A stretch of DNA of 64,000 nt from Candidatus Curtissbacteria bacterium (lineage in GTDB: Bacteria; Patescibacteriota; Microgenomatia; Curtissbacterales; GWA2-41-24), in NCBI GenBank assembly GCA_030647775.1, contig JAUSJC010000010.1, forward strand, positions 338,646 to 402,645, written 5' to 3'. The stretch's first letter is position 1. Each line of letters starts with the position of its first letter. The notes under the pieces were generated by a model. It did not search any database, was not told the origin of the DNA, and was given only the letters and a program-made list of their open reading frames with translations. The position numbers were made by a program, and so were the translations under genes. Positions 11,633 through 62,465 of the stretch are shown here, one piece after another.

Positions 11633-12826
11633 ATGAAAAGAAATTATCAAATAGGAATAGGGAACATTTCAATTGACGAAAACGCAAAAAGGAATGTCAT
11701 GGACGTTCTTAATTCTTCAAGGCTTTCTTACGGCGATTATTCTAGACAATTTGAGACAGAAATGGCAAAAATCCATGACAGGAAATATGCGATTTTCTTA
11801 AACAGCGGCACAAGCGCTCTCCATATAGCGCTACAAGTCTTAAAAGATAAATACGGCTGGGAAGATAACGACGAAGTCTTAGTTCCCGCCGTTACCTTTG
11901 TAGCGACCTCTAATATTGTTTTGCATAACCGGCTTAAACCCATTTTTGTAGATGTCGAAAAAGATTTTTATTGTATAGACCCAAAGAAGGTAGAGGAGAA
12001 GATTACAAAAAAAACCAGAGCCATTATCCCTGTTCACCTTTTTGGTCAGAGTAGTGAAATGGTGAAAATAATTGAAATAGCTAAAAAATATCACCTCAAA
12101 ATTATCGAGGATTCATGCGAAGCAATGTTTGTAGAGTATATGAGCCGCCCCGTAGGGTCTATGGGCGACATTTCCTGCTACTCAACCTATGCCACACATC
12201 TGATTACGACCGGAGTAGGGGGTCTGGCAATGACCAATGACGACGATTTGGCAATTCGCCTAAAAAGCTGCGCGAATCACGGACGTGACGGTATTTATCT
12301 TTCAATAGATGATGATAAGGGGAAAAATAAAAAGGATTTATTTAACATTGTTGAAAGAAGATTTTCCTTTATTCATCTTGGTCACAGTTTCAGGCTGACG
12401 GAAATGGAAGCTGCTATTGGCGTGGCCCAGCTTAAAAATTGGAGGAGCATTATCAAAAAAAGACAGTCAAACGCGAAATATCTGACTGCAAACCTTTCTA
12501 AATGGTCTAAATATATGCAGCTGCCCAAGATAAGGGATGGGGCGACACATGCTTTTATGCTTTACCCTATACTAATTCTAGACAGAAAAATAAGCAGAAA
12601 AAACCTCACGGAATACTTAGAGATAAACGGGATCGAGACGAGGTATTTAATGCCCCTTTTAAATCAACCGATCTATGTAAAGCTCTTTGGTAATTTAGAA
12701 AATCTATATCCGGTTGCCAGGAATATTAACAAAAACGGGTTTCTGATCGGTTGTCATCAGGATTTAAAGAAAGAAGAATTGGATCACGTCATTGGGGTTT
12801 TTAATAGTTACTTCTCTAGAATCTAA
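11633..12826 (+). CDS. DegT/DnrJ/EryC1/StrS-family PLP-dependent sugar aminotransferase
   Basis: 'AIFLNSGTSALHIAL', 'VPAVTFVATSNIV', 'IIEDSCEA' are hallmark motifs of the family. Confidence 0.75.
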   Translation: MKRNYQIGIGNISIDENAKRNVMDVLNSSRLSYGDYSRQFETEMAKIHDRKYAIFLNSGTSALHIALQVLKDKYGWEDNDEVLVPAVTFVATSNIVLHNRLKPIFVDVEKDFYCIDPKKVEEKITKKTRAIIPVHLFGQSSEMVKIIEIAKKYHLKIIEDSCEAMFVEYMSRPVGSMGDISCYSTYATHLITTGVGGLAMTNDDDLAIRLKSCANHGRDGIYLSIDDDKGKNKKDLFNIVERRFSFIHLGHSFRLTEMEAAIGVAQLKNWRSIIKKRQSNAKYLTANLSKWSKYMQLPKIRDGATHAFMLYPILILDRKISRKNLTEYLEINGIETRYLMPLLNQPIYVKLFGNLENLYPVARNINKNGFLIGCHQDLKKEELDHVIGVFNSYFSRI

Positions 12827-12838
12827 GCCGGCGGGGAA

Positions 12839-14167
12839 ATGAATTTAAAACATATAAGACTTCCTGGTAATTTCTATATCTTAGCTGTCATTTTCGCTTT
12901 CGTTCTAAGGTTTATATTCATGCCATTTTCTGCTCATTCCGACTTTTATGTAATTAATATGTTTCCCAGCTTACTCTGGAGAGAAAATGTAGTTGATATC
13001 CTTTCTTATTCTAGACAAGAAGTAAACAGGCCGGGATTTTCTTATTACCCGCCGCTTACATATTTCACCTTAAGCGTTTTTCAATTCTTATATCAACCTT
13101 TTTCTAATACCTTCATCCCTTGGGTAGACCAATTGAGAAGCTTATACGTTGGAGGCTTCAGGGGAACGGAGGCAGACTACATCAAGCTAGTTGACAATCC
13201 GTTTATTTTTAGAGATATATTTTTGGGGAAAACACCATACCTTATTTTTGATATAGGATGTGTTTTAGCATTAGTAGCTTTTATTAGGCGCAGGTACATA
13301 GACAAAAAAATCGTACTACTTTGGCTCTTTAACCCCGTTTTGCTATACGGAGCATACATCTTTGGCCAGTTTGATATCATTCCGGCTTTTTTTATCCTTT
13401 TGGGATTTTTATTGATAGATAAAAATCCCTCTCTTGGCCTTTTTACAGTTGGAATCGCTGGTGCTTTCAAAAACTATTCCTTTGTCTTTATTATTCCCTT
13501 AGCCGGGATTTATGGAAGATCCTTAAAAGACAAGGCGAAACTCGCTCTAATTGGCTTTGTTCCATCCTTTATTTTCGCAACTCCGACTATTATTAATAGT
13601 CCTAGTGATGCTGTATTTGCATTTTTTAATGGAATTATTCTGCAATCTAAAAGACCCTTAGAAGGTTGGCCTCTTTACTCACAGCTCCTGCGTTATACTG
13701 CTCTGGCTTTTTCTTACTTTTCCATTACTCTACTGTTTTCGTTAACAACAATAAAAAATAAATGGCGATTGTCTGTAGGAGTCTGCTGCATTGCAATTTT
13801 ATTGGTCTTAACCCTCGTACCCAGGACGTCATTCCATTATTTGTTTTGGGCATTCCCGCTAATTATTTTATGGTTCAGGGGTTTTAAGGTTTGCACTTCT
13901 ATACTTTTAATCCAAACAATAAGTTTTGCTTCATATAAAATACTTGCCCCGCAACTGCAAGCCGGGCTTTTTGTTCCGATAAACCCGGATTACTTTCATT
14001 CCCTTCCGACATTCAATTACTTACTTGGGCAAATTATTCCCTATAGAATAATAAGTACGGCAGGGTTCCTTATTTTTCTAAGCCTAAACCTTTATTTGAT
14101 AGCAAGGATAATTTACGAAATTACGTTTAAATCCGAAGTTAGTTTGCGGAAGTTAGGCCGAAGATAA
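12839..14167 (+). CDS. Polytopic membrane protein (possible DUF2029/GT87-like GT-C)
   Basis: About 11 TM helices across 442 aa. Context only; motif assignment weak. Confidence 0.4.
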   Translation: MNLKHIRLPGNFYILAVIFAFVLRFIFMPFSAHSDFYVINMFPSLLWRENVVDILSYSRQEVNRPGFSYYPPLTYFTLSVFQFLYQPFSNTFIPWVDQLRSLYVGGFRGTEADYIKLVDNPFIFRDIFLGKTPYLIFDIGCVLALVAFIRRRYIDKKIVLLWLFNPVLLYGAYIFGQFDIIPAFFILLGFLLIDKNPSLGLFTVGIAGAFKNYSFVFIIPLAGIYGRSLKDKAKLALIGFVPSFIFATPTIINSPSDAVFAFFNGIILQSKRPLEGWPLYSQLLRYTALAFSYFSITLLFSLTTIKNKWRLSVGVCCIAILLVLTLVPRTSFHYLFWAFPLIILWFRGFKVCTSILLIQTISFASYKILAPQLQAGLFVPINPDYFHSLPTFNYLLGQIIPYRIISTAGFLIFLSLNLYLIARIIYEITFKSEVSLRKLGRR

Positions 14168-15845
14168 CGAAGTTATTATTCTCTACTAGAGTCTTATATT
14201 TACTATACATATAATTTGCAAAACCCGGATTACTCAATAATCGCTTTTTGTCAGCCGATGCAAAAATAACTGCCCCCCTCGATCTTAAATACTCAAGGTA
14301 TTCTTCCGATTTTAGTCTGTAACCGTTAACTGGCGGATTATTTTTCCCTTCTATGTCAAAACTCCAGCCATTGCGATTGGAATAATAAATGACTGTCGGG
14401 CCGGAATCCATTGATCCGATTGTTAGATCATCCTGCTTCGTTAGCCTTTGTACTTCTTTCCCTGTTTCAGTTACAAATCTAAATCTGTCGATAGGCCGAT
14501 ATGCCTTAGTAAAAATTTGCGGCAAAGCACTTATACCAATCATCAAAAATATGAACGAATATACAAACCAATTATGCCTAAAATTCTTTGCTGCTTTCAT
14601 GGTTCCTAGTGCGATAAATATTGAGGCAACCGGCAAAAAAGGCAGATTATAATATTCATGTACCATTGAATGCCTATTGAAGATGAAAAAATAAATTGCT
14701 ATGCCAAGAAGCCAAAAGTAAATAAATTTCATTTTTTTATATTTGCTCGCAGAACACCATAGACTATCTGTCCATAGATAAATGCGAGAGCGAATACATA
14801 CTTCCGAGTACCAGGAGTTTTCTGCTCGCTCATGTAAACTTGAAAGAGAATACCGAGGGTTTTTAGCCCTCGGAAGTTTATAGCCGGTAAAAAGACCAAC
14901 CACGAAAAGGACTAGGCCGATGGGAAGAATAACTTGGTTGTAATTCCATCCAAAAACAGTTGCATAATATTTGTAATCTAAAAATAAAGCAGGCCGAAAC
15001 CAATTAGAAAGGGAGAAATTTTCTTGGTTGACCAAAATGTTCGTCTTGGCTACAAAATAGGCATATTGATACCATATTAGGGACGGTAAAAATGAAATTA
15101 ATACATAAAGCAGTGAATAAGAAAATCTGTGCGCCGTTTTTTGGTGTAAAATTAACAAGAGTATGGGGATAACAGTGAAGATAAACGCCGGGATTTTTAA
15201 AAGGGAAGCAACAGAGGCAAGAAGGGCTGAAATAATAAGATAAATCAATTTCTTCTTTTCGTTCCAGATCAAAGCATAAAAAATTGATCCGAGAGATAGA
15301 GTAATCATCCATTGATCGGGCTGAAAACTTCTCGACACCAAAACGGACATGGGGGATAGGCTATAGAACACAACCGTTATCAAGGAAAGCTTCTCCCCGA
15401 TTAACTTTTTAGATATTCTATATAAGAATAAAAAGGAAATGATCCACCCTAAAACAGAAAAAAGTCTTCCGAGTGTTTCATCAACGCCACCGTTTAAGAG
15501 ATATAAAAAAGCAACAGCTGTATTTAAACCGGGGAATTCCAATATATACAAGACTTCTTTTGGTCCATAAAAATTGACCGCAGGCTGCAGGATGTTAAAT
15601 CCTCCGCGGAAAAGGTTTCTAGTAATTTCTGCTGTTTGTACCTGTCTTGACGGCTCAAATTCAAGGAGCGGAATGTTTATTCTCCATAAACGCAGAGAAA
15701 GACCTAATATTAAAATTATTGCAAGAACAACATAATCTTTATTCTGAGCGAAAAAACTCCTGAATTTATGCCGGAGATGAAGCGAATTTTGAGCGAAATT
15801 CAGAGAACTACGACCCTTAGGCCGTGGGAATCTATTTATTTTCAT
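14139..15845 (-). CDS. PMT_2/ArnT-like (GT39/GT83-type) polytopic membrane glycosyltransferase
   Basis: 'LAIILILGLSLRLWRINIPLLEFE' is the N-terminal LRL-W/Y...D/E loop typical of the family. There are 12+ TM helices and a C-terminal soluble domain. The first ~35 codons overlap repeat element copy A, so the true start is uncertain. Confidence 0.55.
   Translation of the reverse strand: MKINRFPRPKGRSSLNFAQNSLHLRHKFRSFFAQNKDYVVLAIILILGLSLRLWRINIPLLEFEPSRQVQTAEITRNLFRGGFNILQPAVNFYGPKEVLYILEFPGLNTAVAFLYLLNGGVDETLGRLFSVLGWIISFLFLYRISKKLIGEKLSLITVVFYSLSPMSVLVSRSFQPDQWMITLSLGSIFYALIWNEKKKLIYLIISALLASVASLLKIPAFIFTVIPILLLILHQKTAHRFSYSLLYVLISFLPSLIWYQYAYFVAKTNILVNQENFSLSNWFRPALFLDYKYYATVFGWNYNQVILPIGLVLFVVGLFTGYKLPRAKNPRYSLSSLHERAENSWYSEVCIRSRIYLWTDSLWCSASKYKKMKFIYFWLLGIAIYFFIFNRHSMVHEYYNLPFLPVASIFIALGTMKAAKNFRHNWFVYSFIFLMIGISALPQIFTKAYRPIDRFRFVTETGKEVQRLTKQDDLTIGSMDSGPTVIYYSNRNGWSFDIEGKNNPPVNGYRLKSEEYLEYLRSRGAVIFASADKKRLLSNPGFANYMYSKYKTLVENNNFVIFGLTSAN
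15741..15837 (+). repeat. Junction repeat element, copy A (long form)
   Basis: ATTCTGAGCGAAAAAACTCC[TGAATTTATGCC]GGAGATGAAGCGAATTTTGAGCGAAATTCAGAGAACTACGACCCTTAGGCCGTGGGAATCTATTT. About 90% identical to copy C except for a 12-bp indel. Confidence 0.8.
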
Positions 15846-17631
15846 ACGTTCTCAATATATTTATCAGTTTGTTTAGTTTCCTTACGTTGCCTTTTCCAAA
15901 GTATTCTTTAGCGAATCTTATTTTGTCCCGAGAAACAAAGTCCAGCCGCGTTTCTTTTAAAAATGCTACCAATCCGAGCTGTAAATCATTTTCTGATAAT
16001 ACGGAGAATGATCTATCAAATTTTCCAACACCGAACATGTCCGTTTTATTGTAAGGATTGAAAAATACGGTAGGCTTCCCTGATAGCAAAGAATACACAC
16101 CCGCTGTGGTATTTTCAAATATTATGACGTCTGCATCTTTAAGTGCTTCATTCAAAGAATTAAAATCGGAGAATTTGCATTTTTGAGGATATTTATTAAC
16201 TAAAGCAGTAAAATTTCTTCTATTTTGGAATGGGTGGAGACGGATAGAAATTTCAACGTTAATGTCCGAGTTTAAAAGTAAAGAAAAAAGCCTTTTTTCC
16301 CAGTAAATTGTTAACCCCGGATCAAAGTAATGGATAGTAGCGAGAAATAATATTTTAATTTTGTCAGGCTTTTGGCTTTTGGAATTAACTTCAATGTTGG
16401 TGTCAAAAGGGGATTCCCCAATCAATACCTTTTTTTTACCAAGAGGCCTTCCGTCATTCGTGTAAAAGTTTGAAAAAAAAAGTTCACTTGTCTTCTTGCT
16501 CCATAAAATATGTTTATTGCTTAGAGGTAAAGGGTAGGGGATAGGTGCAAGACTTCCTCCATGTTCAATGGATATCGTTTCTACTCCTGCCTCTTTTGCC
16601 CCGGAGATAAAAGTTAAGCATTTAGTATCAGGATCGGTAAAAGTTACTAATAAATTTATCCCGGATCCTGTTATTATTTTTCTAGCTAGAATTATATCCG
16701 CGCCGATTTCTCTGAATTCATTTCTTATTACTTGTGAAATTTTAGCCTTTATAAATTTACTTGCGAATTTATCTTCGTCAAATCTAGGGTGAGAAAATTT
16801 ATTCCAAGCATGCTCTTTTATCAGATGGGATTCTATAATTTTTGATTCTTCCCAAATCTCTTTATCGTAAAGTCTTTCTTTTTCCCAAAACTCACAAGTG
16901 AAACTTTTTAACACTTTTCTTTGAGAAAAAGTAAGTCCATATGTTAAAAAAATAACGTCCAGTCCTGATTTTTTAATGTCACTTATAAATTCCTCCATTT
17001 CTAAAAATTTTGAAGGTGGAATAAGCATTAGGATTTTCCCGTTTCTAATCTTGTTTCTCTTAAGCCCATTGAGGAATTTATAGATGTTACCGACAGATTG
17101 TCTCAACTTAAATTCTCTTCTACTATTAATTGATATTTTTCTATATTTTATATTTTTCTTTCTACTAAGAAGAAAAAAGGCATGGGGAATTAAAGTGCCG
17201 TTATTAATACTATACCCGGGGTAATCTTCCAATCCAAAAGTAATTATTTTTTTTGGTTTAAAATAGTTAATTACTTTTTCACCAAAATCATAACTTCTTT
17301 CGAAATCTTGTAAAAAAAATCCTATTCTGTCTCTTACGTATTTATAATATTCATTACCAAGTTCACTATAAACGATTTTAAAATTATCTATGAAATATTT
17401 GGCGCCGCCGCTATAACCGTCCTTTGATATGAATTTATATAAGGGATTTTTCCACCCGGGGATATTTTTTTCAAGATAAAACTCAGCTTCTAGGGAAATA
17501 GCAAGATATATTTTATTTTGAGCGAAAATCAAAGAACCGCGGCCGAAAGATCGTGGGAATCTATTGTTACCAACCAGCGAAAGAGCCGTCCTTGCTTCTT
17601 CTTCGGTGCTTACTATTATTAACGTACCCAT
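15832..17631 (-). CDS. Large GT-B-like transferase (TagF/capsule-type), candidate nonulosonic-acid transferase
   Basis: 599 aa. C-terminal half 'KIKILFLATIHYFD...RLHPFQN...IIFENTTAGVYSLLSGKPTVFF' resembles CDP-glycerol glycerophosphotransferase / capsule transferase folds. Lies immediately downstream of the NulO biosynthesis genes. N-terminus overlaps repeat copy B. Confidence 0.35.
   Translation of the reverse strand: MGTLIIVSTEEEARTALSLVGNNRFPRSFGRGSLIFAQNKIYLAISLEAEFYLEKNIPGWKNPLYKFISKDGYSGGAKYFIDNFKIVYSELGNEYYKYVRDRIGFFLQDFERSYDFGEKVINYFKPKKIITFGLEDYPGYSINNGTLIPHAFFLLSRKKNIKYRKISINSRREFKLRQSVGNIYKFLNGLKRNKIRNGKILMLIPPSKFLEMEEFISDIKKSGLDVIFLTYGLTFSQRKVLKSFTCEFWEKERLYDKEIWEESKIIESHLIKEHAWNKFSHPRFDEDKFASKFIKAKISQVIRNEFREIGADIILARKIITGSGINLLVTFTDPDTKCLTFISGAKEAGVETISIEHGGSLAPIPYPLPLSNKHILWSKKTSELFFSNFYTNDGRPLGKKKVLIGESPFDTNIEVNSKSQKPDKIKILFLATIHYFDPGLTIYWEKRLFSLLLNSDINVEISIRLHPFQNRRNFTALVNKYPQKCKFSDFNSLNEALKDADVIIFENTTAGVYSLLSGKPTVFFNPYNKTDMFGVGKFDRSFSVLSENDLQLGLVAFLKETRLDFVSRDKIRFAKEYFGKGNVRKLNKLINILRTYENK
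17516..17565 (+). repeat. Junction repeat element, copy B (short form)
   Basis: TTTTGAGCGAAAATCAAAGAACCGCGGCCGAAAGATCGTGGGAATCTATT. Confidence 0.75.
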
Positions 17632-17638
17632 CCGTGGT

Positions 17639-18199
17639 TTAAATTTTAATGCCGAAAAGGTCGCAAAAGTCTTTCTTAAGCACGCCGTATTTCAATATAT
17701 CGGCATATGACCCATGCTTGTAGAGTTGTTCTTTCAGTCGACCTTCCTCTTTCATTCCTAAGAATTTCGCCAATTTCTGCATCCCGATATTATGCTGTGA
17801 AGTTCCACAGTAGATTCTGTGCAGATTCATTTCAGAAAACCCGTGTTTCACAAGCAGTAAAGAAGCTTCCTTTGAGTAGCCTTTATTCCAGTAATCTTGC
17901 TCCCCGACTATAATGGCAAATTCTGCGTTCTTATTAGTATAGTCAATACCCTGAAGCGCGATATTCCCTATGTGAATTTCCTTCCCTTTCAAAATGATTG
18001 CCAACACTATTGCATCCCTAGTTTTTTTTGAGGCATTTATATATGCGAGCCCTTCCGCCACAGAATAAGGGAAAACATGGTGAGAATTAAATTCGCACAC
18101 TTTTTCATCATTCAACCATGAAACGTAATTGCCTTTTAAATCTTCCTCCGTTAGTCCTCTTAAATAAATATGTTCACCTTCTAAAAATACGTTTTTCAC
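17639..18199 (-). CDS. GNAT N-acetyltransferase (PseH-like candidate)
   Basis: 'FAIIVGEQDYWNKGYSKEASLLLVKHGF' and 'HRIYCGTSQHNIGMQKLAKFLGMKEEG' are GNAT motifs A/B (RimL-like). Confidence 0.65.
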   Translation of the reverse strand: MKNVFLEGEHIYLRGLTEEDLKGNYVSWLNDEKVCEFNSHHVFPYSVAEGLAYINASKKTRDAIVLAIILKGKEIHIGNIALQGIDYTNKNAEFAIIVGEQDYWNKGYSKEASLLLVKHGFSEMNLHRIYCGTSQHNIGMQKLAKFLGMKEEGRLKEQLYKHGSYADILKYGVLKKDFCDLFGIKI

Positions 18200-19503
18200 T
18201 TAAGTTCCTCTTTGTATTTCCAGACTTTTTCAAAGGCCCTAACTACGTCGTCAAGGTCGTCTCTCGTCATGGGCGGTTTAAAAAGCTCATTATTTATAAG
18301 AACATTATCATAACAACTTTCAGCAACCGGACAAATACCTTTGTCGTATTTTACTCCACTTTTGTTCCAAGGACTGTTCCATGGCCATCCCGCCGATCCA
18401 ATCGCAATCTTATTTTGAAAAAGAGGCAACAGATGGATTGGTTTTATGTAGCCTTTACCGAGTGTTACACCTTCGTCAGTCCTTTTTTCGTACGGCAGAA
18501 GTTCTGCCTTAACCGCATCTACAAAAACATCCCTGTGAACTCCCGCAATTTCCGAAGAGTACTGCAGTGGTTGGTAATAATAGCTGTGCGTACAATCCTT
18601 TCTTACTTTTCCTAATTTTATGCATGGAATATTTTTTAAACCCTGGGAAAGATATTCCACATTAGTCCGCCTTTCTTCTACAAGTGGCTTGACCTTTTTT
18701 AATTGTTCTTTGCCAATAGCAGCCGTAATTTCAGTCATTCGGAAATTAAAACCAACCATATTTACTAAAGTCTCAAAGCCGCCTCTCCCATCGATTACAG
18801 CTTCTGCATGATTCCTTATCATTCTTGCTCTTTCGGCAAATAAATCGTTATCGGTTACTATTACGCCTCCCTCTCCTGTATGGATATGTTTGTGGAAATT
18901 CAAGGAATGAATGCCTATGTCTCCAAGTGTACCGGCGTATTTCTTTCCATAGTTTGCAAAAATCGCCTGTGCAGCATCCTCAATCACAACGAGTCCACGC
19001 TCTTTAGCAAGCTTATTGATATTTTTGGAATCGTAAGGAAGACCAAAAAGGTCAACAACTATAATTGCTCGGGTGTTTTTTGTAATTCTTTCTTCAATTG
19101 ATTTGGCGGAAAGACAAAAAAAATCTTCTTCTATGTCAGCAAAAACCGGAATAGCTCCATAAAAGAGTGGAGCCGTAGCGGAGCAGCTCATAGAGTAGGG
19201 AGTTACAATTATTTCGTCGCCAGGGCTTGTGCCGATAGCCCCGACAGCGCATATTAATCCTGACGTAGCTGAATTAACTACGATTGCATGTTTTACTCCG
19301 AAATACTTTGACCATTCGGTCTCAAAAGATTTGGCCTCTTCGCCGCCATAGAATCTCGCGTGTTGGGCACCGATATATCCGGAAAGCCTGCCGGATTTGA
19401 AAACACGCAAAACTGCCTTTTCTTCCTCCGTCCCAAAATTGTTATATGCCGGAAAGTTTTTGTTCCTGATTTTCCTTCCGCCATTAATCGCTAGTTTTGC
19501 CAT
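18196..19503 (-). CDS. DegT-family PLP aminotransferase (PseC/LegC-like)
   Basis: 'VNSATSGLICAV', 'TPYSMSCSATAP', 'VIEDAAQA'. Adjacent to the other NulO genes. Confidence 0.75.
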   Translation of the reverse strand: MAKLAINGGRKIRNKNFPAYNNFGTEEEKAVLRVFKSGRLSGYIGAQHARFYGGEEAKSFETEWSKYFGVKHAIVVNSATSGLICAVGAIGTSPGDEIIVTPYSMSCSATAPLFYGAIPVFADIEEDFFCLSAKSIEERITKNTRAIIVVDLFGLPYDSKNINKLAKERGLVVIEDAAQAIFANYGKKYAGTLGDIGIHSLNFHKHIHTGEGGVIVTDNDLFAERARMIRNHAEAVIDGRGGFETLVNMVGFNFRMTEITAAIGKEQLKKVKPLVEERRTNVEYLSQGLKNIPCIKLGKVRKDCTHSYYYQPLQYSSEIAGVHRDVFVDAVKAELLPYEKRTDEGVTLGKGYIKPIHLLPLFQNKIAIGSAGWPWNSPWNKSGVKYDKGICPVAESCYDNVLINNELFKPPMTRDDLDDVVRAFEKVWKYKEELK

Positions 19504-21553: not shown

Positions 21554-21558
21554 AAATT

Positions 21559-22299: not shown

Positions 22300-22345
22300 G
22301 ACTAGGCTCATAATTATTAATATGGTAATATTACCATATTGGCAA

Positions 22346-24495: not shown

Positions 24496-24502
24496 ATTCT
24501 CT

Positions 24503-25552
24503 TCAAATTAAATCCCAAGTAATGGTAGTGTCTGCGGGAATATCTGCTTTTGCTTTGCGCCCGACAACGATGTCGATAAATTTTGGAGGAATACCCATTC
24601 CCGGCCTTTTACCAATTAGCATGTCTTTCGTTATTTTAGTATCTTTCTTAATATCGACGAGCGATGTTACAGATCTCCTTGCAAATCTTTGAGCTTCCAT
24701 CTCAGATTCTACCGGCTCTTTCAACCCTTTCCCAAGGCTTTCTTCGGCGAGCCGGACCGCATCAACCAGCTGCTTCATTTCGGCCGGATCAACCCCCAAT
24801 TGGTGGTCAGGACTGTCAGGCAAAGTCTTATCTGTTGTAAAGTGTTTCTCAACTATTCTTGCGCCTCTCATTACCGCAAAAGCTGGAGTCAGAGGGCTAA
24901 AGGTATGGTCGGAAAATCCAATTGGAATCTCCGGAAACAAACCCCGGAGTGAATCTATCATCAGGAGATTTGCATCATCGGCAGCCGTCGGGTAGCTTAA
25001 GATACAATGAAGAAGGATAATTTGGTCGTTCCCGCATTTTTTAATAAAATTCACCGCTTCTTCTATCTCACCAATTGTCGCCGCTCCTGTCGACATAATA
25101 ATCGGTTTACCCGTTTTCGCTACTTTCGAAAGAAGTGGGAAGTAAATAATATCAGCCGAAGCGATTTTATAGGCAGGAACATTAATATCTTCAAGTAGAT
25201 CAACGGCTTCAAGCTCAAATGGAGTTGAAAATAAGATGATGCCAATTTCTTTCGCATAATCCATCATCTTCTGGTAATTATTTTCCGGCAATTCATCCAA
25301 AACGGAAAAGGTTTCATATTGGGTCTTGCCGTCATTAGGCCCTACGTGCCAATATTTTGGCGCTTTTTTGGTAACAAGTCTCTCCGCAGTATAATTCTGG
25401 AATTTAATAGCATCGCATCCAGCCTCTTTGGCAAGCCGAATATGGTCTTTTGCTCTTTCCAGTTCCCCGTTGTGGTTAACTCCGGCCTCCGCAACTATAA
25501 AAACCGGTTCATTTCCCCCGATCTTCTTACCGCCAATTTTTATAGTCTTCAT
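24503..25552 (-). CDS. NeuB-family nonulosonic acid synthase (PseI/LegI/NeuB-like)
   Basis: 'FIVAEAGVNHNGELERAKDHIRLAKEAGCDAIKFQ' NeuB N-terminal signature. C-terminal SAF/antifreeze-like domain. Confidence 0.8.
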   Translation of the reverse strand: MKTIKIGGKKIGGNEPVFIVAEAGVNHNGELERAKDHIRLAKEAGCDAIKFQNYTAERLVTKKAPKYWHVGPNDGKTQYETFSVLDELPENNYQKMMDYAKEIGIILFSTPFELEAVDLLEDINVPAYKIASADIIYFPLLSKVAKTGKPIIMSTGAATIGEIEEAVNFIKKCGNDQIILLHCILSYPTAADDANLLMIDSLRGLFPEIPIGFSDHTFSPLTPAFAVMRGARIVEKHFTTDKTLPDSPDHQLGVDPAEMKQLVDAVRLAEESLGKGLKEPVESEMEAQRFARRSVTSLVDIKKDTKITKDMLIGKRPGMGIPPKFIDIVVGRKAKADIPADTTITWDLI

Positions 25553-28287: not shown

Positions 28288-28953
28288 ATGGAACCGGAAA
28301 TAACTCGTCTTTACAGGTTACGTTTTGATAAAGATCTTAAGAAGAGAAACGAAATTTGGAAAATTCTTTGCAGGGATTTTTTCCAAAAATACATAAAACC
28401 TTCCGATACCGTTTGCGATCTTGGCGCGGGGTATTGTGAATTCATAAACAACATTAAAGCAAAAATCAGAATTGCCATCGACATTAACCCGGAAACCAAA
28501 AAATTTGCAAACAAAGGACTAGCAACTTTAATTACCTCAAGTACCAATTTACCTAAAAATTTGTATAACAAAGTTGACGTCGTTTTTGCCAGTAATTTTT
28601 TTGAACATTTATCCACGAAAGAAGAATTGGCAAAAACGCTGGTGGAAATTAATAAAATATTAAAAACAGGCGGGAAAATTATTGTTCTTATGCCAAACAT
28701 CCGATATATTGGGGCGGCTTACTGGGATTTTTTGGATCACCAGCTTCCGTTAACGGAAAAAAGCATGGTTGAAGCCCTAACCTTAAATGGTTGCAGGATA
28801 ATAGAAAAAAGAAACAGATTTCTACCATATACGACAAAAAGTCGCTTACCGAAAATGGGATTTTTGGTTAGACTTTATTTAAAACTAACCCCACTGCATC
28901 TACTTTTTGGGAAGCAATCGTTAATCATTGCCCAAAAACTACCACTTAAATGA
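28288..28953 (+). CDS. Class I SAM-dependent methyltransferase
   Basis: Motif I 'VCDLGAGYCEF'. 'VDVVFASNFFEHL'. 'GGKIIVLMPN'. Confidence 0.6.
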   Translation: MEPEITRLYRLRFDKDLKKRNEIWKILCRDFFQKYIKPSDTVCDLGAGYCEFINNIKAKIRIAIDINPETKKFANKGLATLITSSTNLPKNLYNKVDVVFASNFFEHLSTKEELAKTLVEINKILKTGGKIIVLMPNIRYIGAAYWDFLDHQLPLTEKSMVEALTLNGCRIIEKRNRFLPYTTKSRLPKMGFLVRLYLKLTPLHLLFGKQSLIIAQKLPLK

Positions 28954-30716
28954 CTCAAGGATTTATTTCGAGCGAAAAAACTCCGGAGATGAAACGAATT
29001 TTGAGCGAAAATCAGAGAACCACAACCTTCAGGCTGTGGGGATCTATTTCTAAAAATAAATTGGTAATCTCTTTTATTTTTGCCATTACTGCGATCAGCT
29101 TTTTCTTAAGGTTATATCAATTAGGTAATGTTCCAAACGGGCTGTCAGCAGATGAAGCAGATATGGCATATAATGCTTTTTCTATTCTTAAAACCGGTAA
29201 GGATGTTTATGGAAGGCATCTTCCCATATTTTTTCAGTCTCTTGATGGTTTTGTCCCGGGTTTCGGGATATACGCGTCTATTCCGACAATTTACATATTT
29301 GGCTTAAACGATTTTGCTATTAGGCTTTTACCTGCCGCGATTGGCGCGCTTACGCCGCTTCTAATGTATTTTCTAGCTAAAATTCTTTATCCCAAGAAGA
29401 AATATTTACCTATAATTTGTGCAATTTTAACAACTTTTGCCCCTTGGAATATAGCTATTTCTAGGGCACTCTGGCTGTACATTGAACTTATTTTTTTCTA
29501 TATCTTATTTCTTATCATTTTTTTACTGGGTATTCAAAAAAATTTTAAATTAATTATTTTAAGTGCATTAGTGCTCGTTTTGACTCAATATATTTATCTT
29601 GCGGCAATTCTTTATCTTCCGCTAATAGTTATTACTGTCACAATTATTTATAGAAAAAACTTTTCCAAAAATTTAAAAATAAGTCTTCTGGCATTATCTT
29701 TATTAATTATTTTATCTTTACCGAGTATTGTTTACTACTTAAATCAAAGCTCAAGGGGACGATTAAACTCGATTTCGATTTTTCAGAATGATGTAACGCT
29801 TCCGATATCAATATCAGAAAAGCAACAGGATATTAAAAATAACGATAACTTTAGTGCTTTATTGCATAATCGCAGACTGGTATATTTAATCGATTCGGTA
29901 GAAAACTATTTCAAATACATAAATTTTAGTGCCCTTTTCGTTAATAGTAGTGGTATTCGGCTGTTTTATGTAAACTACGTTGGATTATTTTATCTTATTG
30001 AACTGCCTTTTTTCCTATTTGGATTCTTATATCTTATAAATGATATTAGGAAAGAGCACAATCTTCTTGTCGCAAGTTTATTTCTGATCGGGCCCATACC
30101 CGCTATATTTATACTCGGAGCCACTTTTTTTCATAGATCTATTTTATTTTTACTGGCAATTCAAATTATTTCAGCAGTCGGGATTAACAATTTTTATGAA
30201 CAAATAAAGAAAACTAAAGTTAAATATTGGTTACATATTGTTATCTTTCTTGTCCTTGTGTATATGTCAAGCATATATTTCTTTTTGCACCAGTATTTTA
30301 TCCATTCACCAAACGAGTTTACTTCTGAAGATGATAATGGGGCGTGGTTTTCTACGGTAAAAAATGCTATTCCAATAGTTAATGAAAATAAAACAAAATA
30401 CGAGAAAATAGTTTTCACTTGGTCTAAGAGCAAACTTATTCCCCCCGTTTACTTTCTTTTTTACAACAAAGTTGATCCTTCTGTAATGCAAAAAAAGGCT
30501 TCCGGTTGGACGAACGAACCGCCCTCTTATAAACAGATCTACAATCAAATTGACAATATTGAATTTAGGTCAATTAACTGGCTTCAAGACAAAAATCTCA
30601 AAAGCGCTCTTTTTATTGGGTACCCGAGCGATTTTCCGGAGGACGTAAAAAACGTAGTTGCAAAAACGTATCTGCCAAACGGCGAGGTTCATTTTCTTGT
30701 TGTTAAAAATCCCTAA
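28950..30716 (+). CDS. PMT_2/ArnT-like (GT83/GT39-type) membrane glycosyltransferase
   Basis: 'FFLRLYQLGNVPNGLSADEADMAYNAFS' is a textbook first-loop motif. 12+ TM helices plus a C-terminal periplasmic domain. The first ~30 codons overlap repeat copy C, so the real start may be downstream. Confidence 0.6.
   Translation: MTQGFISSEKTPEMKRILSENQRTTTFRLWGSISKNKLVISFIFAITAISFFLRLYQLGNVPNGLSADEADMAYNAFSILKTGKDVYGRHLPIFFQSLDGFVPGFGIYASIPTIYIFGLNDFAIRLLPAAIGALTPLLMYFLAKILYPKKKYLPIICAILTTFAPWNIAISRALWLYIELIFFYILFLIIFLLGIQKNFKLIILSALVLVLTQYIYLAAILYLPLIVITVTIIYRKNFSKNLKISLLALSLLIILSLPSIVYYLNQSSRGRLNSISIFQNDVTLPISISEKQQDIKNNDNFSALLHNRRLVYLIDSVENYFKYINFSALFVNSSGIRLFYVNYVGLFYLIELPFFLFGFLYLINDIRKEHNLLVASLFLIGPIPAIFILGATFFHRSILFLLAIQIISAVGINNFYEQIKKTKVKYWLHIVIFLVLVYMSSIYFFLHQYFIHSPNEFTSEDDNGAWFSTVKNAIPIVNENKTKYEKIVFTWSKSKLIPPVYFLFYNKVDPSVMQKKASGWTNEPPSYKQIYNQIDNIEFRSINWLQDKNLKSALFIGYPSDFPEDVKNVVAKTYLPNGEVHFLVVKNP
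28965..29049 (+). repeat. Junction repeat element, copy C (long form)
   Basis: TTTCGAGCGAAAAAACTCCGGAGATGAAACGAATTTTGAGCGAAAATCAGAGAACCACAACCTTCAGGCTGTGGGGATCTATTT. Confidence 0.8.
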
Positions 30717-33265: not shown

Positions 33266-34513
33266 CTACACGATTTTTATTTTAGGAATGGGAATTATAA
33301 ACTTTCCGCCATTTTTTTTAAACTCTCGTTCTTTCTCAATAATTTCGTCAGCAAAATTCCAGGCGAGAATGAGTATATAATCTGGTCTGTCTTTTGCTAT
33401 TCTACTTTCCCCATAAACCGGGATATGAACACCGGGGGTAAATAACCCTTGTTTATATGGAGTGGAATCGACAATGTAGTCTAAAATGTTAGTGCCAATA
33501 CCAAAATAATTAGTCAAAACATTGCCCTTTGCGGCAGCGCCATACCCAATAATTTTTTTTCTCTTTTTCTTCAAATCGGTCAACAGTTCCATAAGCTCAA
33601 CTTTTAAATTTTCAATTCTTCTGGCAAAATCGATCAAAGCCTTTGTTGAATATAAGCCTTGGTTTTCTTCAACAGAAAGCAAATATTTCACGGTATTTAA
33701 GGCCTTATTGCTTTTACGGCTTTTTTTTCTGTGAATCAAACGGATAGAACCGCCATGTATCAAAAGTCGCTGGACACCTATTATCTCAAAACCATATAGG
33801 CTGATCAATTTAATCCAAGGCTTGAGTGAAAAATATGACAGATGTTCATGATAAATAGTATCGAATTCATTTTTTTTAATAAGGTCTACCAAATATGGAA
33901 ATTCTGTAACAAATACACCGTCTTTTGCCAGCAAACTCGCTACACCCTCAAAGACCTGATGCAGATTATCAATATGGGCAATTACGTTAGTCGCGGTTAT
34001 TACATCTGCTTTCCCATATTTTTTCACTATTTGTTTCGCGTTTCGAGCGTTAAAAAATTTTACTTCCGTAGGTATTCCTTTCATCTCTGCAAGCTTCGCT
34101 AAATTTTTTGCAGGATCAATTCCAAGAACTTTAACTTCAAAATTTTTGAAAAAGGTCAATAGGCTTCCATCATTAGATCCAATATCTACTACCAGTGAAG
34201 ATTTATTCAATTTGAACTCCTTGTATATTTGAAAAGCAAGATTGCCAAAGTTATTCATCATAACCTTGGCCATAGAAGGGATGTAAACATAGTTTTTGAA
34301 CATCAGTGCGGGGTTAACAACAATAGAAAGTTGTACCAAACAACAGTCTTCACAAAATAAACATGCAAGTTCAAATTTCTGCTCGGAAGTTTTTAATTTA
34401 TCTCTTTCTAAGAAGCCATTCGGTATCGGCATAGACCCTAAATCGAGAAATTTAAAAAGCCGCCTGCTATGACAAATTCTGCATTTTTCCACATCTCTAT
34501 AAGCTTTTTTCAT
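33266..34513 (-). CDS. Zinc-binding SAM-dependent sugar C-methyltransferase-like enzyme
   Basis: N-term 'CRICHSRRL...CEDCCLVQL' zinc-binding domain. Motif I 'VVDIGSNDGSL'. Long C-terminal domain, about 415 aa. Confidence 0.6.
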   Translation of the reverse strand: MKKAYRDVEKCRICHSRRLFKFLDLGSMPIPNGFLERDKLKTSEQKFELACLFCEDCCLVQLSIVVNPALMFKNYVYIPSMAKVMMNNFGNLAFQIYKEFKLNKSSLVVDIGSNDGSLLTFFKNFEVKVLGIDPAKNLAKLAEMKGIPTEVKFFNARNAKQIVKKYGKADVITATNVIAHIDNLHQVFEGVASLLAKDGVFVTEFPYLVDLIKKNEFDTIYHEHLSYFSLKPWIKLISLYGFEIIGVQRLLIHGGSIRLIHRKKSRKSNKALNTVKYLLSVEENQGLYSTKALIDFARRIENLKVELMELLTDLKKKRKKIIGYGAAAKGNVLTNYFGIGTNILDYIVDSTPYKQGLFTPGVHIPVYGESRIAKDRPDYILILAWNFADEIIEKEREFKKNGGKFIIPIPKIKIV

Positions 34514-34583: not shown

Positions 34584-34668
34584 ATTCTGAGCGAAAATCA
34601 GAGAACCACGGCCTTAGTTCGCAAGCTCACGTTTTTGCTTCGCAAAAAGAGGCCGTGGGAATCTATTT
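34584..34668 (+). repeat. Junction repeat element, copy D (short form with 37-bp hairpin insertion)
   Basis: ATTCTGAGCGAAAATCAGAGAACCACGGCC-TTAG-[TTCGCAAGCTCACGTTTTTGCTTCGCAAAAAGA]-GGCCGTGGGAATCTATTT. Outer perfect 8-bp inverted repeat CCACGGCC/GGCCGTGG. Inner perfect hairpin TTTTTGC-TTC-GCAAAAA. Confidence 0.8.
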
Positions 34669-36321
34669 AAACTTTAAAATATCAAAATATGGCCCGGTAC
34701 GTTCTAGGCTATACATTGAAAACGTCTCCCCATTATCATAGCTCTCAAAATTAGAAGCGGCTTCGTATAATGCTTCTGGTAGTATTCCACGATATGCAAG
34801 CCCGCTTTTCAAAGGGCTAAAGGTGGCTACCTTTTTCAGCAAATTAGGGTTTTGTGAATAAATACTGTCTTTCGGGTAGTAGTAGTAGTCTATGACATAA
34901 GAAATAGGATAATCGCCTGTTGCGTTGTTAAGTTTTTCCATTTTCGTTTTGCCGCCCGCGGGTGCCGTGTAGACAATGTTTCTCATATTAGGCAAGTAGT
35001 TACCGCTAAGCACAGTTGCTTCCTGATAATAATTAGGCTGGAATTTTTGTCCATTTAAAATTGCTTCTTTTGAAGGAACGAAAGTTTGATATCTTCCTCC
35101 TAAATAAGCAATAGGTTCTCGCGGGTTAATATTTCGAGCGATCCAATCTCTTGCCTGAATGAAAGTCGGTTCTTTCAAAAAAATATAATTCCAGTAAAAA
35201 GAATTAAAACCTGCAACAAAAAAAATTACCGTCAGGGTAAAAAATTTCAAAGGCCAGCTATTTTCCAATAAGCGCCATTTAAGGCCATTCCAAGTGGCAA
35301 AAGCCGCAAAAGGGATGAGTAGAAAAATTGCAATATTAAAATAATGCAAAACGGGGTAAAGAAAAAACAATGCAAAAACAAAATTAGCAATGAGGAAATA
35401 AAATACGAGCCTTGCTTGTTTGCTAAAGGTTCTAAAACCAAAGACGCTAAGTGTTCCAAATAATAATATTACAAAATCTGTCTTTGCAAAACTTCTGATG
35501 ATAAAAAACAAGTTGGGATTGGTCAAATTATTGATAAGTTTCGCCAATATACCGCTTTCATGTCTGAATAACGCGCCAATAAAGGAATCGGGTCGTAGTT
35601 TTAAAAGAGCGTCCTCAAATCCTGAATGTAAGACTAATCTGCTTAAAATCAAAACAGAAAATGCACTTAGCAAAAGACCGATTATAAATTGGCGTAAATA
35701 CTTTTTTTCAAAGAAGAGAAATATCAGGGGGAAGCTGAAAATCCCAATTTGTAGAAAACCATAAGAAACAATTGCACAAATAAATGCCCATAAAAATTGT
35801 CTCTTTAAACAAAAATATAAAGCCAACAGCAAAAAAAACATTGCTTCGGGCCATGGTCTTGCAAAATGAGACATGTGAACCAAATTGAATGAAAAAGAGG
35901 CAAGCAGTGCAGCCAGCATAGCGATCCGTTTATTCTCGAATAAAAGCTTTGTCAAGTGATAAATTAAAAGAATTGTTAGAGTACCAAAGAATGCCGAGTA
36001 AAATCTCGGTATAAATAAAAAGTAACCCTCATGTGTAATTACAAATTGCCTAAACTCATCAATATTATGGATATTACCCATTGTCTTCATATATAGATAA
36101 GAAAAGCCAATAAAAGGAATTTGGATGTAGGCACTAAGAGGCGTGTAATAAGATTGAGACTTTATCGTTTTTTGTGCAATCATCGTATAAGCTGATATTT
36201 GCGTAATTGCCTCATCGTTAGAGACATAAAGCGATGGGGAACCAAAATTTAAACCCAAAAAACGTAGTCCTACACCAACCAAGACAATTAAAATTAAAAA
36301 TTTACTTTTGAATAACGACAT
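34663..36321 (-). CDS. PMT_2/ArnT-like polytopic membrane glycosyltransferase
   Basis: 'LIVLVGVGLRFLGLNFGSPSLYVSNDEA' first-loop motif. Multiple TM helices. Stop codon supplied by repeat copy D. Confidence 0.55.
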   Translation of the reverse strand: MSLFKSKFLILIVLVGVGLRFLGLNFGSPSLYVSNDEAITQISAYTMIAQKTIKSQSYYTPLSAYIQIPFIGFSYLYMKTMGNIHNIDEFRQFVITHEGYFLFIPRFYSAFFGTLTILLIYHLTKLLFENKRIAMLAALLASFSFNLVHMSHFARPWPEAMFFLLLALYFCLKRQFLWAFICAIVSYGFLQIGIFSFPLIFLFFEKKYLRQFIIGLLLSAFSVLILSRLVLHSGFEDALLKLRPDSFIGALFRHESGILAKLINNLTNPNLFFIIRSFAKTDFVILLFGTLSVFGFRTFSKQARLVFYFLIANFVFALFFLYPVLHYFNIAIFLLIPFAAFATWNGLKWRLLENSWPLKFFTLTVIFFVAGFNSFYWNYIFLKEPTFIQARDWIARNINPREPIAYLGGRYQTFVPSKEAILNGQKFQPNYYQEATVLSGNYLPNMRNIVYTAPAGGKTKMEKLNNATGDYPISYVIDYYYYPKDSIYSQNPNLLKKVATFSPLKSGLAYRGILPEALYEAASNFESYDNGETFSMYSLERTGPYFDILKFK

Positions 36322-60276: not shown

Positions 60277-60834
60277 ATGTGTCTCTATAACAAGTTAAGA
60301 TATCTAATATTGCCTATCAGGCAAATAGATAGCGCTCTACCGTCAAGTGGCCAAATCGTCGACCTTGGCTGTGGTCAGGGTATCCTGGCCGCTTATCTGG
60401 CGAGGAGAAAAGAGCGCAATGTCATAGGCGTAGATCTCGACGCAGCTAGGTTGCCAAACAAAGAGTTGGCAAACCTTAAATTTATAAAGGCCGATATCAC
60501 TAAATACAATCTAAAAAACGTCGACGGTATTGTCATTTCCGACGTCCTTCACCATATAAGCCGTGTCGACCAAAGTGAACTTCTTGCCAAAATCGCCAAA
60601 GGTTTAAAGAGAGGGGGTATCCTTGTTATCAAAGAAATAGATTCGAAAGAATTTATCAGAAGCAAGCTTACCAGGCTCTGGGATTTTATTCTCTACCCCC
60701 ATGATGAAATTTCTTTCTCGAATTCCCAAACACTCACGCGAAATCTAAAAAGGTTAGGTTTTAATGTTAACGTCCAAAGGGTGGTTACATGGTTTCCCGG
60801 CTCAACCACTCTCTACATATGTACAAAAAGATAA
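60277..60834 (+). CDS. Class I SAM-dependent methyltransferase
   Basis: Motif I 'IVDLGCGQGILAAYLA'. 'GIVISDVLHHI'. 'GGILVIKE'. Confidence 0.6.
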   Translation: MCLYNKLRYLILPIRQIDSALPSSGQIVDLGCGQGILAAYLARRKERNVIGVDLDAARLPNKELANLKFIKADITKYNLKNVDGIVISDVLHHISRVDQSELLAKIAKGLKRGGILVIKEIDSKEFIRSKLTRLWDFILYPHDEISFSNSQTLTRNLKRLGFNVNVQRVVTWFPGSTTLYICTKR

Positions 60835-62465
60835 GCAGAGCTTTTCCGCGAATAAGCGAAGCTTTTCTACGAATAAGCAGAGCTTTTCTACGAATAAGCA
60901 GAGCTTTTCTACGAATAAGCAGAGCTTTTCATCAAATAATAAAATTTTGGCCAATTGCTACTCTTCTTTTAATAACCCTTATTTCAAGAATCATAAATTT
61001 AGAAAAACTTTTCTATTTTACCTACGATGAATCAATCCCGGCTTTTGTCGGCCGCCGCCTCATTCTTTGGTATCACATTCCCTTAATCGGCGGCGCCACG
61101 CCGTTTGGTTTTCACCTTGGCCCTTATTTTTACTGGTTTTACGCCGCGCTTCTTGCCGTCGGCCGTCTTAACCCGCTTGTCTGGGGATATGCCGCTACAG
61201 TCATTTCAGTATTTACTACCTTATTAATGTATATTGTCGGCAAGAACTTCGGCGGCAAAAAAGTCGGTATTACCGCGGCAGTGTTCTGGACGTTTTCGTA
61301 CCTTGCTAATATCTACGACCGCCATCTCTGGGCGCTTTTCTGGGGCCCGCTAACTAGCCTTTTAGTTTTGTTTTTCTTAGAAAAAATAATTTCCGGCCGT
61401 CAAAAATTCATTTATCTGCTTGCCTTAACAATTGGTCTTTCCATTCATGCCGATCCGTCGAATATTATCTTTGTCATTCTTGCCGTTTTTGCTTTCGCCT
61501 ACTGGAAGGTGTCTATCAAGAAGAATCTATCGATTCTTTTTGCGGCCATTATTCTTTTTACCCTTCCGCTTGTTGCTTTTGACCTTCGCCACGATTTTGC
61601 CAATATCCGCCCGACTGCAGGTTTCATCAAGGCCGGCGCAAACACCCCGGCAATCCGTACCCAAAAATTCGTTACCAATTCGCTTCTGTTCCCGCAGGCG
61701 GCAACACGCCTTGTCTATACTTTTGGGGATAACCAAGTTGCTAAACAGTATTCCTATTGCAAAAACTTCGTCGCCGAAAAGTTTGCCGCCACTGCTCAAA
61801 TCTTTGTTTTCTTATCCGCCTTTGCCATTCTTGCTTTCATCCTCTGGTCTTTCAAAAACCGCCAAAGTTTATGGTTTCTTGTTTCCAGTTTATTGTTGCT
61901 CTACTTCCTCGGCATCCAAATTTATGGCACGATTCTCGGCGGTGACATTTTTGAGCACTACATCACTGGCCTTTTCCCGGCGTTTTTACTAATTACCGCC
62001 TTTTTTGTAAGCAAATTACCCAAAAAACTTTGGCTTGTTGCCCTTGGCATTTTTGTCGCCGCCAATCTTTATAAATTATCGCTTGCTCAAAACAGTCAGG
62101 GGCTGACCGAAAAAAGAGAAGCAATTGAATATACAATGCGGCAGGTGGGGGATAAACCATTTTCGCTTGACTCCCTGTCAACCTGCTGGAAGTTGAATGG
62201 CTACCGCTATCTTTTTGCCGTTTACGGTAGGGAGCCGGTCAAAAGTTATGTCGACCCAAATTTTGCCTACCTTTATGGTACTACCCCGGTCTGGGATCAT
62301 CATCCGGCGACTGTCGTCGCCTTTGTGGTTCACGACTACGCCCCCGAAACTCAAGCCTTTTACCAACGCTACGCCCTTTTAAAATCCCACCAAATTTCCT
62401 CATCCAAATTTGGCTCCATTGAGGTAATCGTAATGGATAACTCAACAGGCTGGTTTGATAAATAG
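60819..62465 (+). CDS. PMT_2/ArnT-like polytopic membrane glycosyltransferase with N-terminal 7-aa tandem-repeat tail
   Basis: 'FYFTYDESIPAFVGRRLILWYHIPLIGGATPFGFHLGPYFYW' first-loop motif. Start assumed at 'MYKKISRAF' (16-nt overlap with the MTase). N-terminus holds (ISRAFLR)x4 encoded by a 21-bp tandem repeat. Confidence 0.55.
   Translation: MYKKISRAFPRISEAFLRISRAFLRISRAFLRISRAFHQIIKFWPIATLLLITLISRIINLEKLFYFTYDESIPAFVGRRLILWYHIPLIGGATPFGFHLGPYFYWFYAALLAVGRLNPLVWGYAATVISVFTTLLMYIVGKNFGGKKVGITAAVFWTFSYLANIYDRHLWALFWGPLTSLLVLFFLEKIISGRQKFIYLLALTIGLSIHADPSNIIFVILAVFAFAYWKVSIKKNLSILFAAIILFTLPLVAFDLRHDFANIRPTAGFIKAGANTPAIRTQKFVTNSLLFPQAATRLVYTFGDNQVAKQYSYCKNFVAEKFAATAQIFVFLSAFAILAFILWSFKNRQSLWFLVSSLLLLYFLGIQIYGTILGGDIFEHYITGLFPAFLLITAFFVSKLPKKLWLVALGIFVAANLYKLSLAQNSQGLTEKREAIEYTMRQVGDKPFSLDSLSTCWKLNGYRYLFAVYGREPVKSYVDPNFAYLYGTTPVWDHHPATVVAFVVHDYAPETQAFYQRYALLKSHQISSSKFGSIEVIVMDNSTGWFDK
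60831..60935 (+). repeat. Tandem repeat, 21-bp unit x5 (ATAAGCAGAGCTTTTCTACGA consensus; first and last units degenerate)
   Basis: Direct reading: 60831-60851, 60852-60872, 60873-60893, 60894-60914, 60915-60935. Units 3 and 4 are identical. Confidence 0.85.

Follow-up and report, generated by a model that had tools for sequence, protein, structure and literature searches.

A short palindromic repeat probably carried in frame within genes of a Candidatus Curtissbacteria glycosylation cluster

Repetitive extragenic palindromic sequences and bacterial interspersed mosaic elements (REP/BIME) are extragenic, carry a GTAG head and are mobilised by REP-associated tyrosine transposases (RAYT) of the Y1/HUH type; a review is available (PMC3184786). 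Enterobacterial repetitive intergenic consensus (ERIC) elements can be intragenic. REP/BIME are one of the described systems closest to the one treated here; the other two are found inside genes. The Rickettsia palindromic elements (RPEs) are in-frame repeats within unrelated protein-coding genes (Ogata et al. 2000, summarised in PMC10969869). Among the bacterial miniature inverted-repeat transposable elements, or MITEs, QMITE1 and QMITE2 of Coxiella make in-frame fusions or supply stop codons (PMC5896051), and in-frame fusions of both MITEs and RPEs have been documented (PMC10969869, PMC5896051). Here we describe a 48-nt element present in four copies in a 64,000-nt stretch of a Candidatus Curtissbacteria genome (GenBank assembly GCA_030647775.1, contig JAUSJC010000010.1, positions 338,646 to 402,645 of the forward strand), the whole of which we call the window. 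It is likely that the element is a lineage-specific, non-autonomous palindromic repeat that sits in frame within genes and works in the manner of Rickettsia RPEs and of MITEs, and we claim no membership of a named family. For bacteria of the Candidate Phyla Radiation (CPR, Patescibacteria), we found no report of in-frame palindromic insertions in the searchable literature. The copies, named A to D, and the genes that host three of them are as follows.

Copy A, 15744-15836, plus strand: 93-nt dimer of module 1 (15744-15788, 45 nt, head and small hairpin) and module 2 (15789-15836, 48 nt).
Copy B, 17518-17565, plus strand: 48-nt monomer.
Copy C, 28968-29048, plus strand: 81-nt dimer of module 1 (28968-29000, 33 nt) and module 2 (29001-29048, 48 nt).
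Hairpin of copy C: arms 29020-29027 and 29032-29039, outer 3-bp helix 29014-29016 with 29043-29045.
Copy D, 34587-34667, plus strand: 81 nt, a monomer with a 33-nt loop insertion.
Gene A, 14139..15845, minus strand: host of copy A, a PMT_2-family GT-C gene with two in-frame insertions relative to five homologues.
Gene B, 15832..17631, minus strand: host of copy B, encoding a soluble 599-aa protein whose relatives weakly match PF27859 (LIC12162).
Gene C, 28950..30716, plus strand: host of copy C, encoding a GT-C/PMT-like membrane glycosyltransferase of 588 aa.

A repeat finder groups the copies as a direct family (n=4, at 15786, 17515, 28998 and 34584). A 21-nt core pattern, with up to three mismatches allowed, matches only these four sites, all on the plus strand, where shuffled sequences lead one to expect none. 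A covariance model built on the four copies scores 77-85 bits at them, the runner-up in the window reaching 20 bits. By the core pattern and the covariance model, then, the four copies reported in the initial annotation of this stretch are real. That annotation had placed copy C in the opposite orientation to the other three, which holds relative to the genes: copy C has a plus-strand host, and the host or neighbouring genes of copies A, B and D are on the minus strand. On the DNA it does not hold, since the plus strand carries all four as direct repeats and none is inverted. Likewise, the copies had been linked to GT-C paralogues; this fits genes A and C, but the product of gene B is not a GT-C enzyme and copy D lies outside open reading frames (ORFs).

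The basic unit of 48 nt (16 codons) is made up of YTGAGCGAAAWTCARAGAAC, an imperfect hairpin of 8 bp whose loop has 4 nt, and GGRATCTATT, with an outer 3-bp helix (AGA/UCU) closed by a symmetric GAA/GAA internal loop. In the dimeric copies A and C a shorter module 1 is followed by a 48-nt module 2, and in copy D the 33-nt loop insertion makes the stem longer (fold z = -3.1). All of the unit lengths (45, 48, 48, 33, 48 and 81 nt) are divisible by three. Copies of module 2 are 77-88% identical and differ mostly in the hairpin, the flanks being nearly invariant. TTATT is found immediately 5' of every copy and CTATT at each copy's end. The translated copies are free of stop codons in one frame of each strand, LSENQRT..WESI on the plus strand and NRFPR..SLIFAQ on the minus strand, and these two frames are codon-aligned with each other; three of the four remaining frames (+1, -1 and -2) contain conserved stops. 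Gene C is read through the plus frame and genes A and B through the minus frame, so the element is indeed tolerated in either orientation relative to the gene, each time without a stop. Because the two frames are codon-aligned, the synonymous substitutions among the copies (counted by hand) are equal in number, five in the plus frame and five in the minus frame, and therefore give no sign of selection for one particular peptide.

Gene B has five homologues. One of these, P0122, is 82% identical and lies on a syntenic contig of the Logan assemblies, L011 in our numbering (order DegT, GNAT, B, GT-C). In all of the homologues, a block of the form M..TLxIVSxEEEAxxAL.. is directly followed by NKIYLAISLEAEFYL, and L011 reads ...ALSLVYD-NKIYLAISLEAEF. 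In the window, gene B encodes a further 16 residues, GNNRFPRSFGRGSLIFAQ, that separate the two conserved N-terminal blocks; here copy B, read on the minus strand as NRFPRSFGRGSLIFAQ, falls within the conserved N-terminal region. When the DNA is compared with L011, the window shows a net gain of 48 nt exactly at copy B, both sides are highly identical, and the empty site has TTTTATT once. The covariance model finds no element on L011, where the sites of copies A and B are both empty. On these comparisons copy B is evidently an in-frame insertion within a pre-existing coding sequence, missing from this close relative. An AlphaFold2 model of the gene B protein (pTM 0.80) has residues 21-37 as coil with pLDDT <50, between a helix (10-18) and a strand (40-44), which places the insert at a predicted surface loop that is structurally tolerant.

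A very similar case is found in gene A. Its GT-C homologue on L011 begins ATG AAA CTT AAG AAA GAT (MKLKKDILVF...). The window gene begins ATG AAA, with upstream DNA conserved between the two, and then has the 93-nt dimer followed by AAA GAT. Residues 3-35 are missing in the five aligned homologues, and in 150 homologues the matching begins at about query residues 35-43. Judged by this alignment, copy A is evidently a frame-keeping insertion into pre-existing coding sequence, absent from L011. The minus-strand ORF 14139..15845 does read the element on the other strand, as had been noted before. Copy A also reaches the neighbouring gene: gene B terminates at the TAG that this copy supplies (15834-15832) and ends YENK* in the window versus YET* in L011. 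Window positions 13196-24503 are reproduced exactly in an independent Logan assembly (run SRR13727527), which covers copies A and B with no mismatch and yields the same 599-aa and 568-aa products.

In gene C the reading is less direct. The initial annotation was right that ORF 28950..30716 begins with an ATGA overlap and that it runs through copy C before a PMT_2-like N-terminus. The ATG at 28950 overlaps the TGA stop of the methyltransferase ORF 28288..28953, and such 4-nt start/stop overlaps are found at 13 of the 42 same-strand junctions in the window. The first 37 residues, MTQGFISSEKTPEMKRILSENQRTTTFRLWGSISKNK, are followed by the first transmembrane segment (TM1) and the conserved ADEADMAY loop. 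The gene reads ...KRILSENQRTTTFRLWGS... ahead of the TM1/DEAD region, copy C itself giving SSEKTPEMKRILSENQRTTTFRLWGSI in this frame, and the DEAD-containing loop after TM1 is conserved. The gene had been described as the best-conserved one of the ArnT/PMT_2 type; its own match to Pfam PMT, at 19.5 bits, is below the cut-off of 22.7, although homologues at 55-59% identity carry PF02366/PF13231. The nearest orthologue is 59% identical. Orthologues are about 30 residues shorter at the N-terminus and start 4-9 residues ahead of TM1 (MTSKIKSIIF, MTVSKKFTIIF, MLLSKNFKLVF). If the 81-nt dimer is taken out, the DNA reads ATGACTCAAGGATTTATT joined to TCTAAAAATAAATTG, translated MTQGFISKNKLVISFIF, and the resulting N-terminus (MTQGFISKNKLVISF) is similar to those of the orthologues in length and character. 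Copy C would then be an insertion of this kind too, behind the sixth codon of gene C, with the ATGA-overlapping ATG at 28950 as the start. Copies A and C are both located in the short tail that precedes TM1. As a separate observation, positions 2840-2880 of L012, upstream of or at the 5' end of the gene C orthologue P0014, contain TCTACTAAAACTCCTGAGATGAGAAAAG, which is similar to module 1 (TCGAGCGAAAAAACTCCGGAGATGAAACG); the called protein begins MIYQLLEPRQLSTKTPEMRKV, and this may be a related insert or an over-extended start.

Copy D is not within an ORF. It is located between two minus-strand genes, the GT-C gene 34663..36321 and the C-methyltransferase 33266..34513. The GT-C gene takes its stop codon from copy D (TAG, 34665-34663), and a TAA closes here the minus frame that is used in genes A and B. 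The best homologue of this GT-C gene is only 46% identical, and no empty site could be obtained from it.

The explanation that we favour is that a small and non-autonomous palindromic repeat, which has the size of a REP and behaves like an RPE or MITE, was copied into four TTATT sites of the glycosylation gene cluster in one Candidatus Curtissbacteria genome. The copies now seen would be survivors of selection, with only frame-keeping, stop-free insertions retained at tolerant positions, such as N-terminal tails before TM1, a surface loop, or the end of a gene where the element provides the stop. The element would be translated as extra peptide, and no function for the host would be required. 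If the inserts are translated, peptides such as ALSLVGNNRFPR, or GSLIFAQNK across the junctions, are expected. Spread would probably depend on an enzyme acting in trans, with the conserved GAGCGAA head and the hairpin as its recognition features, and one may speculate that this enzyme is strand-specific, comparable to the HUH/Y1 enzymes that move REPs and IS200/IS605.

Compared with the described systems, the element behaves most like the RPEs, being a short palindromic repeat in unrelated genes that keeps the frame, adds peptide at tolerant positions and is also found intergenically. The likeness claimed is one of behaviour. RPEs are about 150 bp long, whereas the unit here is 48 nt and its dimers 81-93 nt; the host belongs to a different phylum (CPR/Patescibacteria), the copies seen number four, and, unlike in RPEs, both orientations are translated through codon-aligned open frames. 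With MITEs it shares that it is small, non-coding, non-autonomous and multi-copy (four, of 48-93 nt), that its presence differs between relatives, and that it extends N- or C-termini or, in copies A and D, provides the upstream gene with its stop codon. Unlike MITEs, it has no terminal inverted repeats and no identified parent insertion sequence, and the duplication at its ends is ambiguous. REP/BIME elements resemble it in the imperfect palindrome, the size, the conserved head and the occurrence of units singly, as dimers or in a mosaic (L036, see below), as well as in copies that share one orientation within a stretch of uniform GC skew. They differ in that the head here is GAGCGAA and not GTAG, three of the four copies are inside ORFs, the copies are very few, and no RAYT was seen. 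Because the tests for the inverted repeats of MITEs and for the extragenic position of REPs failed, we describe the element as RPE/MITE-like in its working and not as a member of a family.

Several points weigh against this explanation. No empty site was found for copies C and D, and the start of gene C is uncertain, with ATG 28989, TTG 29001 and TTG 29061 as candidates beside ATG 28950. The known copies are only these four and one distant relative (on L036). A scan of public genome contigs with the 48-nt element gave no matches, a scan of public metagenome contigs gave three, all at chance level by the covariance model, and a refined model found no further relatives of the unit on 29 Curtissbacteria loci. 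As for transposases, none turned up in the window proteins that were scanned, and none recurs near 29 loci that carry copies of ins2, a second insertion in gene A that is described below, so we infer mobility from presence versus absence alone; no Y1 transposase or RAYT was seen in either set. The ends of the element, YTGAGCGAAA and AATAGATYCC (the reverse complement of the right end), are unrelated, so that terminal inverted repeats are missing, and its sole inverted repeat is the internal hairpin. The TATT flanks could equally be a 4-bp target-site duplication or a target preference together with an end borne by the element, which makes a duplication of 4-5 bp ambiguous. Finally, four copies would all fall on one strand by chance in one case in eight. 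GC skew is negative throughout the window, and the shared orientation is compatible with strand-specific insertion, which a sample of four cannot establish.

The alternative that survives best, and which we still consider unlikely, is a cis-regulatory RNA hairpin or DNA operator at the 5' ends of glycosylation genes that would co-ordinate their expression through translation initiation, mRNA stability or the binding of a regulator. None of the four copies, which share a single glycan-biosynthesis cluster, is more than about 75 nt from a start codon, and the near-invariant flanks with variable hairpin arms would suit such a role. Over five copies the stem is paired at 92.7%, with two pairs doubly changed in a compensatory manner; the covariation is no higher than in shuffle controls. 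Counts of G-U versus A-C pairs, made by hand, do not favour either strand for a putative RNA: of 55 cells, 51 pair on the plus strand and 50 on the minus. At gathering thresholds, Rfam gave no match anywhere in the window, and searches of the regions of copy D and ins2 gave chance-level ones only. A transcript of gene C would also hold one strand of the element and transcripts of genes A, B and D the other. Neither the 82% relative nor any orthologous locus has the element, and the sole relative elsewhere is located between rplA and rplJ, antisense to both. A conserved 5' leader of the GT-C gene was considered as well and rejected, as the upstream DNA is unrelated at the orthologous loci L001, L004 and L005; in the DNA upstream of these gene C orthologues the element was not found.

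It is improbable to a still higher degree that the in-frame position is an annotation artefact, with an intergenic hairpin or terminator being misread as coding and the true starts lying downstream of it. The shorter N-termini of the gene C orthologues and the truly intergenic position of copy D would agree with this, and starts are hard to call in a genome that rarely uses Shine-Dalgarno sites. Such motifs are mostly absent before starts in the window and cannot arbitrate the start of gene C, for which the NCBI protein Q7S45_04330 (100% identical) has an annotated start at ATG 28989, inside the element. Against it, gene B has 20 homologue-conserved residues upstream of the element, and gene A has no in-frame ATG, GTG or TTG between ATG 15845 and TM1, with ATG 15845 being conserved in L011. 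A scan for consensus intrinsic terminators (a GC-rich stem and a T-run) calls no copy on either strand. The initial annotation had regarded the start of gene C as buried in the repeat and had asked whether orthologues start downstream of it. For genes A and B, the start and the conserved N-terminal residues of the relatives instead lie upstream, and the element is best read as an in-frame insertion into coding sequence.

The same annotation had proposed that inverted copies could let GT-C paralogues invert or shuffle their 5' segments and so diversify glycosylation. We see hardly any chance of this. In its favour, two GT-C genes that lie on opposite strands have copies A and C, which are 85-88% identical, at their 5' ends. 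The mechanism is unsupported because it needs inverted copies and there are none; recombination between direct copies would delete the intervening 1.7-19 kb and not invert it. The host of copy B and the position of copy D do not fit either. Insertion after codon 2 of gene A and codon 6 of gene C leaves essentially no 5' segment to exchange, no chimeric gene was seen, no recombinase domain was found among the scanned neighbour proteins in the window, and the independent Logan assembly is unchanged across copies A and B. With direct copies and no such recombinase, the locus also does not resemble a shufflon-type system. The two genes called paralogous are only distantly alike, with 22% protein identity over 193 aa (E = 0.009), so that paralogy does not explain the likeness of their elements. 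This element gives no evidence of programmed glycan diversification.

An intron-like sequence that is removed after transcription and never reaches the protein is just as implausible: a compact, structured element whose flanks are conserved would agree with it, but lengths that are multiples of three and stop-free used frames are predicted by translation and not by splicing, no Rfam intron or ribozyme family matches, and known self-splicing introns are far larger than 48 nt. Integron attC and dif-like sites, repeats of diversity-generating retroelements and box C/D were dropped as candidates, their consensus features being absent on our own reading of the sequence.

If copy C is an in-frame insertion as copies A and B are, the 'extensions' at the N-termini of all three host genes are inserted repeat DNA, and neither mis-called starts nor a regulatory leader. 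The colonisation of genes in frame by palindromic repeats, which is best known from Rickettsia, extends, on the evidence of genes A and B, to a CPR bacterium with a very compact genome. The copies could be used as presence/absence markers for typing at the strain level, and they would constitute a natural experiment on which positions in GT-C proteins and TsaD tolerate 16-47 extra residues. The upper end of this range, and TsaD, concern the second insertion in gene A:

ins2, 14736..14882, minus strand: within gene A at residues ~327-372, ~141 nt (46-47 codons), flanked by TATAAA and with several hairpins.

ins2 is missing from L011 and from four other gene A homologues (46 aa in the protein alignment). 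Its central part, TGAGCGAGCAGAAAACTCC, is similar to module 1, and it otherwise looks unrelated to the 48-nt element. It is 80% identical to an intergenic element of another organism (L005, 3172-3330). GTDB genomes were scanned with an exact pattern taken from two conserved blocks of ins2, which gave the 29 loci mentioned above, in Curtissbacteria and related CPR metagenome-assembled genomes (MAGs), with up to five per genome. Most of these are intergenic, and copies with a length divisible by three (138-141 nt) are found within long ORFs in either orientation. As an example, an in-frame copy splits TsaD into two Pfam stretches (L023, 2346-3638), and a further copy is found within an ORF homologous to this one (L039). 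In another case the N-terminus of a 518-aa membrane protein, encoded after a GT2 gene, is extended by a copy in the opposite orientation (L031, 737-2293). The link to the 48-nt element comes from L036, of Curtissbacteria RIFCSPHIGHO2_02_FULL_42_15. Here positions 6097-6157 match model R1 with 38 bits (E ~1e-5) as a diverged relative of the 48-nt element that adjoins an ins2 copy. The whole of 5920-6160 is a mosaic of three units, namely a hairpin unit with a GAGCGA head, a full ins2 copy and the relative of the 48-nt element, and it is this mosaic that is located between rplA and rplJ.

From this we propose, tentatively and with more doubt than confidence, that Curtissbacteria and perhaps other CPR bacteria host a mosaic family of GAGCGA-headed hairpins, to which the 48-nt unit, the ~141-nt ins2 and module 1 would belong. 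The units would be moved by an unrecognised and possibly strand-specific enzyme, and would routinely settle in coding sequences, including essential TsaD and the N-termini of surface-glycan GT-C proteins, because streamlined genomes have almost no intergenic space. If this is true, they would be a regular source of new peptide segments.

Two further observations concern ins2. About 4.27 kb upstream of the window start, in the same genome, a Logan contig (L007, 1-24) begins in an inverted partial ins2 copy, ACCGAGGGCTTTTAGCCCTCGGAAGTTTAT, which suggests that the assembly was broken at the repeat and that this genome has more ins2 copies. ins2 of the Curtissbacteria type is also found in MAGs labelled 'uncultured Gammaproteobacteria' (L014, L018, L019, L021, L022, L024, L026, L032 and L038), whose taxonomic labels may be wrong.

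The window as a whole is an almost unbroken glycan-biosynthesis cluster with several GT-C-type genes, and it contains other repeats. At 60831-60960, where ORFs 60277..60834 and 60789..62465 overlap, there are about five tandem units of 21 nt, ATAAGCAGAGCTTTTCTACGA. An inverted repeat of 105 nt (71% complementary) connects 11943-12047, in the plus-strand ORF 11633..12826, with 19041-19145, in the minus-strand DegT gene 18196..19503. The counterpart of the former ORF in L007 is a DegT-type aminotransferase, and this repeat may reflect paralogous coding sequence in opposite orientation.

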